Part shown: piece by piece, positions 18,090 through 25,418 of the stretch
Layout of the letters: every line of letters begins with the position of its first letter
Numbering within the stretch: the stretch's first letter is position 1
From: Cetorhinus maximus
Taxonomy: Eukaryota
Assembly (NCBI RefSeq): GCF_964194155.1
Contig: NC_135901.1
Location: 24,862,001-24,926,000, forward strand
Reading direction: 5' to 3'
Length of the DNA stretch: 64,000 nucleotides
Notes under the pieces: model-generated
The model's database searches: none
Told to the model about the DNA's origin: nothing
Seen by the model: the letters and a program-made list of their open reading frames with translations, nothing else
Made by a program: the position numbers and the translations under genes

Positions 18090-19499
18090 ATTTTACATCA
18101 TTATTTTGTTAAACGCTCCAAGATTTAGTCTTTTTAATCCTACTTGTCTTCAATACTCGACTTTCCAAGAGCTTATTTTAAACTCTTCAACTCATCTGTG
18201 ATGGTCACTCTCTGTGCCCAACCTGCCTTTTTAGGAAATAAATTGATCATTACTTCCCTCTGTCCGCCGAACATTCTCTCTTTCTATGTATCTGTCTTTT
18301 TCACTCTGCATCGTTCTCCATCAATCCCACTCTTTACAGTCTTTGGAAAATATATTGCCCTTCAATAGAAACAGGAGGATGTCATTCAGCCCCCTTGACG
18401 CTACTCTGAATTCACTAAGAGAATTGCTGATCTGCCTATCAGCGTCGTTCCCTTACTTCCATCTTCCTCTCTCAACAAAATCAGGAACAACCCTGGCAAA
18501 CAAACTCCCAGGAGGAGGTTGGGTGTGGGGGGGCTCAATTCCACTTGAGCATTCATTGATTGAACCAAAGTCCAACACCATAATCACTCGACTAACCTGC
18601 TGCATTGGAACCTTTTGCTGACCACTCATTGGGCCTTTCAGTGAACGAGACAGGACACATTCCAATGGTCATGGTGCGTTTCTTTTTCTCAAATGTTCCT
18701 TCATTCTATTTTCATCAGTCTCCAATTTGAAATAACTGACAAGTTCCTCTCGGTATTATAACTGAGAATGTGTCTATCTGCTCAGCATTAACTGAACACG
18801 GTAAGAGAGATGCTTTGGGATTATTTGAACTTGGTTTCAGCCCATGCACCCAATGGTTCACTGAGGGCTCGGTGATACATGTGCTACTGACATATTTACG
18901 ATGCGGGGAAGAGACTGTGAAGAGAATCTGTGTATCTACATATGTATCAATATTACATAGACAAGAAGATAGAAGGGAGGGAAACTGAAATGAGTGGAGT
19001 GTATGAAGGCAGATAGAAAGACAGAATAATACATGATGGACACACACTGTTTATAATGCACCTTCACTTGTCTGTGATTACAGATATCTGGTAACATGAT
19101 GGTTGTGAACTTAATATTGTTTATCATGTTTTGCTTCAAGATTCAAACATCCCTCTTCAAGTTTGACATGTGGGGAATCTTCTCTGTTGCAGAGAGCTAG
19201 CTGCCTTTCCAGAGACTCATCAGAGGTTTCAGTGATGATGATGATGGCGATCATTACTATTATTTCATGTTGATATAACCAAGACAAAGTGGATAGTGGA
19301 GAGGATCCTCTTATGACAAATGATGAAGAAAGTAATGCCACATCATCTTGCACCTTAAAATCGTAGACCTCATGTGCGCTGGCATCATCAGAATGTCAGT
19401 AAACCTCCACAATGTCACAATAGAATGTCATTCCCACTCGGTCTGTAACAGTGGAACTATCCCCCCTGTGAGCAGGCTGACTATAGCCTAGCTCGGGGT

Positions 19500-20603
19500 C
19501 AGAGAGTCATAGAGTTATACAGCACCGAAAAAGGCCCTTTGGCCCATCGCGTCCATGCTGGCCATCAAGCACCTATCTATTCTAATCCCATTTCCCAGCA
19601 CTTGGCCCACAGCCCTGTATGTAATGGTGTTTCAAGTGCTTACCTAAATACTTCTTAAATGTTGTCAGGGTTCCTGCCTCGACCACCCCCTCAGGCAGTG
19701 TGTTCCAGATTCCAACCATCCCCTGTGTGAAAATATTTTTCCTCAAATCCCCTCTAAAGCTCCTGCCCCTTACCTTAAATCTCCACCCCCTGGTATTGAC
19801 ACCTCTGCTGAGGGGAAAAGTTTCTTCTTATCTACCCTATCTATGCCCCTCATAATTTTGTACACCTCTATCAGGTCCCCCCTCAGCCTTCTCTTCTCTA
19901 AGGAAAACAACCCTAGCCTATCCAGTCTCCCTTTACAGCTGAAACACTCCAGCCCAGGCAACAGCCTGGTGAATCTCCTCTGCACCCTCTCCAGTGCAAT
20001 CACATCCTTCCTATAGTGTGGTGCCCAGAATTGCACAGATTACTCCAGATGCGGCCCAACTAGTGTTTTATACAGCTCCAACATAACCCCCCTGCTCTTA
20101 TATTCTATGCCTCGACTAATAAAGGCAAGTATCCCATATGCCTTCTTAACCACATTGTCTACCTGTGCTGCTGCCTTCAGGGATCTATGGACTTGTACAC
20201 CAAGGTCCCTCTGATCCCCTGTACTTCCTCGGCTCGTGACATTCATTTGTATTCTCTTGCCATGTTAATCCTCCCAAAATACCTCACCTCACACTTCTCA
20301 GGATTAAATTCAATTTGCCACTGTTCTGTCCATTTTACCAGCCCATCTATATTACCCTGTAATCTAAGGCTTTCCTCTTCACTATTTACAACACCACCAA
20401 TTTTTGTGTCACTTGCGAACTTGCTGATTATACCTCCTATATTAACATCGAAATCATTAATGTACACTACAAATAGCAAGGGTCCCAGCACCGATCCCTG
20501 AGGTATACCACTCATCACAGGCTTCCAATCACTAAAACAACTTTGGATCATCACCCTCTGCCTCCTGCCACTAAGCTAATTTTGGACCCAGTTTGCCAAA
20601 TTG
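19500..20603 (-). mobile_element. 5'-truncated CR1
   Basis: ORFs 20243-20554, 20040-20246 and 19770-20036 carry RT and C-terminal motifs; tail near 19500. Confidence 0.9.
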
Positions 20604-20694
20604 CAGAGCTCGAAATCGGGACTAAATTAACCACGTTAGCTATATGGGGGCTGCAGCTGACCGACGCTGCAGAGTACCACTGCTCCCTGATGCT
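20603..20694 (+). pseudogene. orphan antigen-receptor V segment 3' fragment (TCR alpha/delta-like FR3)
   Basis: AELEIGTKLTTLAIWGLQLTDAAEYHCSLML contains the V-set L-x-I-x-x-L-Q-x-x-D-x-A-x-Y-x-C motif and directly abuts an RSS. Confidence 0.75.
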
Positions 20695-20733
20695 CACAGT
20701 GACAGAAAACAGTGAAACTCTCATACAGAACTC
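20695..20733 (+). promoter_or_regulatory. 23-RSS (V(D)J recombination signal)
   Basis: CACAGTG + 23-nt spacer ACAGAAAACAGTGAAACTCTCAT + ACAGAACTC (6/9 match to ACAAAAACC). Confidence 0.7.
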
Positions 20734-21157
20734 CCCCCACTATGGATGCCTGGGCCCCAGCTGCTGAAGCGTGATCTCAGGGCGGTCAGATGTTGACACG
20801 GTGCTGAGTCACGCCCCTGTGAGCTGACACACACGGAGACGGAGCCAGGAAGCAGCCCCTTGTGTGAAGGACTCACAACAGACTGATTATTTGACACTAG
20901 GAAGTGTTCCTGAGTGTCAGCAATCTCTGTCTCGGTGCGTATCTGAACATTGAACCCTGGTTTTAAAGGGAGAAGTATTTGATCAGAGGCAGGAAGGAAG
21001 GTTTAACCTGTACATTGATTCTCTGATGGGTCTGTCTGTCCGATTGGATTCTACAGTTTGTTTTCTCAGCTGCTCCTGGAGACAGTTGGGTGACGGTTTA
21101 AGCCGAGTTTCTATCTGACACCCAACAGACAGAAGCTCCCAGCCACAGTCCAAAGGC

Positions 21158-21196
21158 AGTTTTTGTACAGGGGTGAGACAGTTTTCCATCACCGTG
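21158..21196 (-). promoter_or_regulatory. 23-RSS (V(D)J recombination signal)
   Basis: Minus strand CACGGTG + 23-nt spacer ATGGAAAACTGTCTCACCCCTGT + ACAAAAACT (6/7 and 8/9 matches to consensus). Confidence 0.8.
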
Positions 21197-21330
21197 AGTC
21201 TTAGAGAGAGTGCAGTGTGAATACGCTGTTGTCTCAGCAGGTCATTGCTTCTTGTAAAGGTATTCTCACATTCAGAATATTGAAACAGAGTGAACACATT
21301 GGTGTTCAGTGTATTGGGAGGATTCAGAGA
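21197..21330 (-). pseudogene. degenerate zinc-finger remnant fused to a V-like end
   Basis: FQYSECENTFTRSNDLLRQQRIHT-ALSLRL then RSS; a second finger remnant (SSQYTEHQCVHS, other frame) lies upstream. Confidence 0.6.
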
Positions 21331-21499
21331 GAAGCTGGAAGCGGCGGATAGTGAGAGTGGAGAATGTTTATTGTTTATTACAGAGATAAAAACAAAAAAC
21401 TGCGGATGCTGGAAATCCAAAACAAAACATCTCCGCCGATGCTGCCAGATCTACTGAGTTTTTCCAGGTATTTCTGTTTTTGTTCATTGTTTAATATTC

Positions 21500-21790
21500 G
21501 GCTCTGGGGCCGCACTCGGAATTTGTAAACCCCGTCCCCCCGCCCGGGGTTTATTAACCCGCTCCCGACAGTGACCTCTCACCTGACAGCTAACAATGCC
21601 CGCCTGATTGACGGCAGCTCAGGACCAATAGCAGGAGGGGGCGTGTCCGCGGTAGCGGCTGGTTCTCGAGCCAATCGGAGTGATGGAGGGGCGTGGCTAG
21701 GCTGCGACTGAAGCATGCGCAGTACTGGAATCAGAGCCGGAAGAAGGCGGTCGGGTTAAGATCACAAAGGGTGAGAAATGAAGCCGACGG
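21500..21790 (+). promoter_or_regulatory. promoter and non-coding first exon of ZNF 24465-25418
   Basis: CCAAT boxes (~21625, ~21671), GC box, GCATGCGCAG (~21713), CCGGAAG ETS site, donor AGG|GTGAGA at ~21771. Confidence 0.6.
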
Positions 21791-21804
21791 CTGGAGTTTG
21801 GGAA

Positions 21805-21895
21805 CCGGGGGGGAGCCTGGAAACCGCGCGCGAGCTCAGAGGGCGGGTGGAGATTATGAAACGGGGGGAGCCTGGAAACCGCGCGCGAACTCGGA
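21805..21895. repeat. two-copy tandem repeat, about 55 bp period
   Basis: GGGGGGAGCCTGGAAACCGCGCGCGA occurs twice. Confidence 0.8.
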
Positions 21896-21904
21896 GGACG
21901 GAGA

Positions 21905-23985: not shown

Positions 23986-24464
23986 TTTTCCCCATGCACC
24001 AGCTGCTCTTGTCTTTCCAGGTGGTGGGGGTCATGGGTTTGGGAGATTCTGTCAAAGATTCTGGTTGAGTTGCAGATCTATGAAATCCAACTCCTTTTCC
24101 CCTCCTCCACCTCTCTCTCTCTTCTCCCATAGAGGCCAGAGTCTTGTGTAGGCCCAGACTGGGAGGCAGGTTCCCTTCCCTGAAGGACATTGGTGAACCA
24201 GTTGGGTTTTTATGACAATCCAGCAGTTTTCATGGTCATTTTTTCCTAGTGTCAGCCCCACAAATTATCAGATTCATTCAGCTCAATTTCACAGCCTGCC
24301 TTTGTGTTTTTGTGGGTTCTGTTTCATATTTCCTTGTTTGTTTTAAATTCATTTTTACAGGGTATTAGAAAGATTTTCAGTCGGGAAAGTCAAACCAAAC
24401 ATCACATCGAAATCTGCCAGAGTCGCTCAATTCATCAGGACCTGAATATTGTCAGCCTTTGAAC

Positions 24465-25418
24465 ATGGAAGCAAAAAGTACCGTTCACACCAGGGAGAAA
24501 CCCTGGAAATGTGGGGACTGTGGGAAGGGATTCAGATCCCCGTCTGAGCTGGAAACTCATCGACGCAGTCACACCGGGGAAAGGCCGTTCATCTGCTCCG
24601 TGTGTGGGAAGGGATTCATTCAGTTAGTCTGTCTTCAGAGGCACCAGCGACTTCACACTGGGGAGAGGCCGTTCACCTGTTCTGTGTGTGGAAAAGGATT
24701 CACTCTCTCATCCCGTCTGCTGAAACACCAGCAAGTTCACACTGACAAGAGAGAGTTTAAATGTCCCAACTGTGAAAAGAGCTTCAAAAACCTACACGGA
24801 CTGAGGGTGCACCAGCACATTCACACCAGGTATGCACCATTCAGCTGCTCACAGTGTGGGAAGAGGTTCAGGACATCACCCCACCTTCTGACACACCAAC
24901 GAGTTCACACTGACGAGAGACCTTTTAAATGTTCAGACTGTGGGAAGTGCTTCAAAACTCCTGGGGATCTGCAATATCATCAACGTATTCACACTGATGA
25001 GAGACCGTTCAGATGCTCTCACTGCGGGACTGGCTTCAGGCAATCGTCTCACCTCACTACACACCAACGCACTCACACTGGGGAGAGGCCATTCACCTGC
25101 TCCAAGTGTGGGAAAGGATTCAGTCAGTCATCCAACCTGTTGACACACCAACAAGTTCACACTGAAGAGAGGCCATTCACCTGCTCTGAATGTGGAAAGG
25201 GATTCACACGATCATCCCACCTGCTGAGCCACCAGCAAATTCACACTGGGGAGAGGCCGTTTACCTGCTCCAAGTGTGGGAAGGGATTCACACAATCATC
25301 AGCGCTGCTGACACACCAGCGAGTTCACACTGAGGAGAGACCCTTCACATGCTCCATGTGTGGGAAGGGATTTAATCGATCATCCAACCTGGGGAAACAC
25401 CAGCGAGTTCACATGTGA
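24465..25418 (+). CDS. C2H2 zinc-finger protein, 11 fingers, intact
   Basis: AACATGG start, [19 protein letters not shown].., 11 C-x2-C..H-x3-H repeats with TGERPF-type linkers, TGA at 25416; acceptor TTTTACAG at ~24360. Confidence 0.9.

Follow-up and report, generated by a model that had tools for sequence, protein, structure and literature searches.

A duplicated block in a zinc-finger gene cluster of Cetorhinus maximus as a probable remnant of two tail-to-tail TCR alpha/delta V pseudogenes

The window, meaning the whole stretch of DNA analyzed here, comprises 64,000 nucleotides of the Cetorhinus maximus genome (contig NC_135901.1, hereafter C24, 24.862 to 24.926 Mb). As the original prediction had stated, T-cell receptor (TCR) V ends lie here within a zinc-finger (ZNF) gene cluster: the 264 kb around the window contain 301 C2H2 motifs and one V hit, namely, the remnant described below, amid ZNF genes. 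The features of the block are as follows (positions of the window).

19290..19410 (approximate limits), plus strand: likely third V relic, FR1, very decayed, placed by DNA homology
19500..20603, minus strand: 5'-truncated LINE fragment, C-terminal part of the reverse transcriptase in a broken frame (Pfam RVT_1)
20604..20694, plus strand: 3' end of the left TCR alpha/delta V pseudogene, FR3 to second Cys (DNA identity, V-set)
20695..20733, plus strand: left 23-RSS with a damaged nonamer (matrix, copy comparison)
20734..21157, no strand assigned: joined 3' flanks of both V genes (84 to 90% identity to older copies)
21158..21196, minus strand: right 23-RSS, near consensus (matrix, comparison with array V genes)
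21197..21216, minus strand: last 20 coding bases of the right TCR alpha/delta V pseudogene, second Cys onward (homology to older copies)
21213..21330, minus strand: C2H2 zinc-finger exon fragment (87% identity to ZNF exons L022 to L025)
21377..21481, no strand assigned: short high-copy repeat (alignment gap in the 12 other young copies)
21500..21900, plus strand: CpG island, likely promoter of the ZNF gene at 24369-25418 (base composition)

The left V end, whose peptide terminates in LQLTDAAEYHCSLM, showed 88% DNA identity to five near-complete V exons, while its own Pfam V-set match (E = 0.085) was below the cut-off. Upstream of it, the LINE fragment (Pfam RVT_1, E = 3.8e-9 for 20246-20575) occupies the place of about 480 to 500 bp of the left V gene, namely, leader, intron, and most of the exon; older copies of the block, which are without the LINE, align up to 19499 and restart at 20623. 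Part of the joined V flanks (20917-21105) matched V-array DNA at 71% (E = 4.5e-21). V-like coding ends had been proposed on both sides, which holds for the left FR3 end, but the right side retains just 20 bp of V coding sequence (21197-21216), with the ZNF exon fragment beyond. Homology to the older copies with whole exons stops at 21216, and the V end and the ZNF exon share 4 bp of microhomology at their junction (21213-21216). A 22-amino-acid piece of the ZNF fragment gave no Pfam hit by itself. Read on the minus strand (21197-21330), this fragment enters the V end in the phase that is normal for a V gene at the heptamer, and no start codon lies upstream in frame. The third V relic was not detected by the V profile in the window itself; paralogs gave weak V-profile hits (iE, 0.003 to 0.16), and the copy at 25.5 Mb gave a tblastn match of 2.5e-5. 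Leader, intron, and open V exon are thus missing, and since 91 bp plus 20 bp of exon are all that is left, the remnant cannot yield a receptor chain.

The CpG island (GC, 0.57 to 0.63; CpG observed/expected, 0.81 to 1.18) likely serves as promoter for the ZNF gene at 24369-25418, both its role and its target being deduced, and it contains motifs that we take to be GC-box, CCAAT, NRF1-like, and ETS-like elements. The near-palindromic repeat between the ZNF fragment and the island has a very high contig depth and occurs in the window copy only.

As predicted, two convergent 23-RSSs with V-type coding ends were present, with heptamers at 20695 (plus strand; CACAGTG-23-ACAGAACTC) and 21196 (minus strand; CACGGTG-23-ACAAAAACT). 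From nonamer to nonamer they are 424 bp apart, in line with the 420 bp or so first noted, and both spacers do share a common start, although its pattern is A..GAAAAC.GT rather than A.GAAAAC.GT. We scored them with a home-made 39-position matrix, which is not RIC and was built on V-RSSs of the same genome, using a 200-kb sample of the V array (C24, 11.75 to 11.95 Mb) that harbors 58 V-like exons (20 on the plus and 38 on the minus strand) and no zinc finger. The matrix took in 32 of the 58 hits, the other 26 being excluded for more than 4 mismatches, lack of a CAC start, or an offset nonamer. Of the 10,108 CAC sites that the surrounding 264 kb contain, the right RSS ranked first (48.5 bits) and the left RSS second (29.3 bits), the third-ranked site scoring 8.8, far below both. 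When heptamer and nonamer alone were scored, the right RSS kept the first rank and the left one dropped to rank 7. In leave-one-out comparisons, the right RSS exceeded 26 of the 32 array RSSs (17 of the 32 on heptamer and nonamer alone), and it is near consensus, matching at 37 of 39 bases the RSS that open-frame V genes of the array carry. The left nonamer harbors a 1-bp deletion relative to older copies, a damage found in all 13 young copies. Both nonamers carry at positions 4 to 6 the purine-A/T-purine motif named in the accessible part of PMC12711392, and the impairment of the left RSS may therefore be below what its score implies. Both RSSs are genuine V-type signals, beyond chance. The absence of partners nearby was also borne out: the same 264 kb contained zero J motifs, and none of its candidate 12-RSSs attained the 5th percentile of 96 real J-alpha RSSs.

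We then looked for copies of the block by genome homology search, scoring the best 40 of 390 candidates, and found up to 26 assembled copies over three forms. Thirteen full-length copies of the window type, nine of them on C24 and four on other contigs, were 95 to 100% identical, and each of two exact junction patterns recovered these same 13. Eight older copies (L014 to L021; 84 to 86% identity) have a two-V form without LINE and without ZNF fragment and display two complete convergent V exons with leader-like sequence, the left one frameshifted and the right one interrupted by a stop. Five more copies have the left V only (L039 to L043, e.g., C24:8384639-8384902), with a near-complete exon and an RSS broken off within the spacer; two of them are situated about 90 kb from a two-V copy. 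The full exons of the older copies matched the Pfam V-set (E = 5.3e-9 for the left and 1.3e-6 for the right) and, in a tree of 45 rows, none of them IgH or IgL V, both grouped with TRA/TRD V genes of sharks (supports, 99/95 and 96/85, respectively), the left one nesting among V genes of the array. Against solved structures, the best matches were a mix of TCR alpha/delta and antibody chains, and the window peptide alone gave weak matches, mostly to antibodies (best E = 0.0025). As to alpha or delta usage, relatives were found both in a gene model with C-alpha (P0010) and in one with C-delta (P0011).

The 13 young copies share their flanks over kilobases, represent 9 haplotypes, and differ at up to 35 of 727 bases, 8 of them differing from one another by 0 to 3 bases; some contain indels of 8 to 10 bp within the block. 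All three paralogous copies examined with 100 kb of surroundings lie among ZNF genes and share with the window the same upstream ZNF unit (homology, 8.6 to 19.5 kb), which suggests a single capture and subsequent segmental duplication. Closely similar pieces were present in public runs under three organism labels, indicating a real sequence that exists outside this assembly as well. Among the public-run contigs listed, none bridged a junction with 31 bases on each side, the best one reaching 26 bases past the V-ZNF junction, so the runs give a mere hint that the junctions are shared with other organisms. One contig of run X19, which is RNA by guess only (depth, 2.8), spans 21070-21242 and was not counted as expression; among the runs listed, none was recorded as RNA or as coming from lymphoid tissue. 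Given that the same V-ZNF junction occurs in 13 copies as divergent as these and that the RSS scores are far above the background sites, a chance motif match or an assembly chimera has a negligible probability, even though the region is highly duplicated, 4 of its 13 copies being on contigs other than C24 and 8 being nearly identical.

The 23/23 pair had been singled out for its signal-end geometry. A special meaning of that geometry was not supported, as the arrangement is that of uncut tail-to-tail V genes: in the array sample, 9 of 57 neighboring V pairs were convergent, 4 of these being 0.73 to 1.15 kb apart. Convergent 23/23 neighbors about 1 kb apart are thus common in the V array, and the geometry needs no RAG event. 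The left and right RSSs are not mutual partners; as normal V signals, both would find their partner among the 12-RSSs of the J-alpha/D-delta cluster. RAG/Transib transposons have RSS-bounded ends, a 5-bp target-site duplication, and asymmetric 12/23-like ends. Outward-pointing heptamers and a multicopy element would suit a reading of the 502 bp between the heptamers as a RAG signal-end fragment or as a small transposon of the Transib/RAG type whose terminal inverted repeats are the RSSs, but we regard this as highly improbable. No 5-bp target-site duplication was found (ATGCT versus AGTCT), both spacers are 23, and both flanks consist of V coding sequence, which the older copies continue into complete V exons; moreover, kilobases of flank are common to all 13 copies, so that none sits at an unrelated site. 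The two RSSs share 24 of 39 bases, a value reached by 229 of 496 unrelated array pairs (median, 23). A transposon or a reinserted signal-end fragment was therefore rejected, on the basis of V-coding flanks common to all copies and the lack of a target duplication. No germline coding joint was found, 13 of the 13 junction copies running on into the heptamer, and one pattern for a germline signal joint, covering a single spacer family, gave 0 exact matches.

Retention of the remnant by selection, as a regulatory or recombination element beside the ZNF promoter, would be in keeping with its same position beside the promoter in all 13 copies and with the closely similar pieces under three organism labels. 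We nevertheless consider it very unlikely, since co-duplication accounts for the position, some copies have indels inside the block, and variation in the RSSs equals that in the flanks. Comparison of the 13 copies showed variation at 3 of 32 core positions of the RSSs versus 63 of 649 positions elsewhere (Fisher P = 1.0), and at 5 of 78 when all RSS positions were counted (P = 0.42), a test of low power because 8 of the 13 copies are almost identical, perhaps partly through assembly redundancy. In the older copies, the right RSS was intact in 0 of 8 and the left in 1 of 8, a loss that fits neutral decay.

We next considered the chromosomal setting. Shark constant-region queries recovered one C-alpha gene at 14.05 Mb and one C-delta gene at 14.23 Mb, both on the minus strand of C24, while a search for C-alpha with Pfam PF09291 found nothing. 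The 200 kb around them contained 100 J-alpha motifs, 96 of which have a 12-RSS with at most 5 mismatches, as well as 13 J-delta motifs and one D-delta. Thirteen J-delta segments are many relative to mammals. The J-alpha cluster extends over 14.055 to 14.151 Mb and the J-delta/D-delta cluster over 14.238 to 14.262 Mb, D-delta being flanked by 12- and 23-RSSs. The inferred location of the RSS partner elsewhere was thus correct: J-alpha and D-delta 12-RSSs lie 10.6 to 10.8 Mb away on the same contig, a distance that depends on the assembly. The V ends, which had been proposed to be orphans, are not far-flung ones: their own contig carries C-alpha, C-delta, and J-alpha 10.7 Mb off, and V blocks in either orientation as far as 23.9 Mb. 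Among the V matches listed (the best 150 of 1056 and of 1123 candidates), most were on C24, between 0.17 and 25.5 Mb and on both strands. Over 0.17 to 26 Mb of C24, to the left and right of the single C-alpha and C-delta genes, the sequence switches back and forth between V blocks and blocks dense in C2H2-ZNF genes, and the ZNF blocks at 13.5, 15.7, and 25.5 Mb each contain one copy of the V-pair element. Other V exons lie 1.0 and 2.0 Mb from the window, a V exon being found at 23.87 Mb and a V block with good RSSs at 22.78 to 22.88 Mb.

Several other properties of the V field were observed. The ZNF block at 15.66 to 15.76 Mb sits between D-delta and the V exons at 16.3 to 23.9 Mb, and deletional use of those V exons would therefore remove ZNF genes. 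Many V exons are downstream of C-alpha (0.17 to 13.8 Mb), and exons with identical scores occur megabases apart (e.g., 0.167, 5.72, 12.73, and 16.32 Mb), which suggests either large duplications of very recent date or redundancy in the assembly. Blocks may also have been assembled in the wrong order in this part of C24, where duplication is heavy, and distances and copy counts would then change. In seven V exons of a family ending in CAMEP or CAMKP (C24:11.75-11.89 Mb), the nonamer lies one base beyond the position expected for a 23 spacer, which suggests a 24-base spacer.

Taken together, these data make it very probable that the block descends, in truncated form, from two TCR alpha/delta V pseudogenes arranged tail to tail. 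These likely left the V array of their own chromosome once for a ZNF cluster, and segmental duplication then likely multiplied them passively. The proposed capture of TCR V ends stands insofar as TCR alpha/delta V ends with 23-RSSs came into a ZNF context, but the captured DNA comprised at least two V genes in full, and their truncation came later. In the order of events that we favor, two or more whole V genes of this chromosome's array would have entered a ZNF cluster in a single capture, by ordinary rearrangement and not by RAG. A LINE-associated deletion would then have removed about 0.5 kb of the left V gene, and a microhomology join would have fused the right V gene to a ZNF exon fragment; the copies would have been multiplied passively by segmental duplication and presumably decayed neutrally. 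One finding against this explanation is that the right RSS is near consensus in the 13 young copies and lost in the older line. The parent V pair was not found in about 0.4 Mb of array, the closest right-V relatives among the matches listed having 57 to 60% protein identity. The outer capture breakpoints were sought and not pinned down, so ordinary rearrangement is a proposed mechanism of capture.

IG/TR orphons and V relics, in IMGT terms, are nonfunctional V segments with RSSs that have left the working array and multiplied through segmental duplication. The shark remnant resembles them in being dead V segments with RSSs, off the array and segmentally duplicated. In contrast to orphons, it lies on the contig of J and C, within the V field or on its margin, and is thus not clearly outside the locus. 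In elasmobranchs, TCR alpha/delta V exons are scattered among other genes over megabases, according to the accessible part of Flajnik et al. 2025 (PMC12227049), table S1 of which gives great white shark V models on both strands between 8.6 and 17.1 Mb, among them V pseudogenes and a plus/minus pair with 0.83 kb between its members. Here, too, V exons on both strands lie between other genes and form close opposite-strand pairs, but "zinc finger" and "ZNF" are absent from the main text of that article, as are "zinc" and "ZNF" from two supplements, and ZNF blocks with an amplified V pair are not described in these parts. At human IGL, ZNF280A, ZNF280B, and PRAME lie among V genes, and rearrangement of distal V genes removes them as bystanders (Mraz 2022, PMC9282919). 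ZNF genes are interleaved with V segments in both cases; in the shark, however, entire blocks of ZNF genes (100 kb or more at 15.7 Mb) separate V blocks from J-alpha, and the element is a dead V pair inside a ZNF block. RSS-bounded geometry is shared with RAG/Transib transposons and with germline-joined shark Ig genes, as far as the latter are covered by the accessible part of PMC2193156, whereas the block has no joined V-J, signal joint, or target duplication, and both its spacers are 23. Dispersed shark TCR alpha/delta V genes and ZNF bystanders at human IGL are therefore already known. A literature search on ZNF-TCR linkage in sharks and on V orientation, conducted mostly outside subscription papers and bioRxiv supplements, found no description of a duplicated V pseudogene pair in ZNF blocks, of this element, or of a ZNF-V mosaic.

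An addition to this origin, compatible with it but supplying an activity, would be that the right RSS acts as a live decoy: the CpG-island promoter of the ZNF gene would open the site and recruit RAG, and some thymocytes would join it to J-alpha. We consider this rather improbable. A good right RSS with a CpG island starting about 300 bp away makes decoy joining to J-alpha possible, all the more as this RSS beats most array RSSs, and is oriented toward the J-alpha 12-RSSs for deletion. The V block with good RSSs at 22.8 Mb and the V exon at 23.87 Mb also count in favor of this reading. According to the accessible parts of the two sources, RAG2 binds H3K4me3 (PMC5175335), which makes occasional use conceivable, and the mouse Trdv3 pseudogene is joined after removal of a loop boundary (PMC4995090). 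The same part of the latter source reports that mouse RAG tracks within a bounded loop domain, which speaks against use of a site more than 10 Mb from J-alpha. The remnant also has no V promoter, the left nonamer is damaged in 13 of the 13 copies, and no joint at either heptamer was found among the joints listed for 8 of the 24 public runs listed, which consist of contigs without recorded tissue from which rare variants were dropped, so that rare somatic events would be invisible there. Measurable use of the right RSS by RAG is quite unlikely. Equally doubtful is the broader scenario, in which ZNF duplications would have carried a near-perfect V-RSS to nine sites on the TCR alpha/delta chromosome, each by a CpG-island promoter, and in which such decoys would join J-alpha in thymocytes, delete or invert megabases of ZNF and V genes, and waste alleles, access being given by a ZNF and not a V promoter. 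Any join at these heptamers would be nonproductive; if the decoy were real, a join of the window copy would cost the allele about 10.7 Mb, with C-delta as well as V blocks and ZNF blocks among the lost DNA, and leave it nonproductive.

The remnant is real but most likely ordinary debris. As such, it offers a datable trace of DNA exchanged between the TCR V array and its alternating neighbors, the ZNF clusters, with one capture and two truncations on record. If the right RSS were used, its copies would provide a test of the reach of RAG in a shark, over 1.5 to 12 Mb, to a strong RSS by a nonimmune promoter, and this question of reach bears on how a dispersed V field stays specific.
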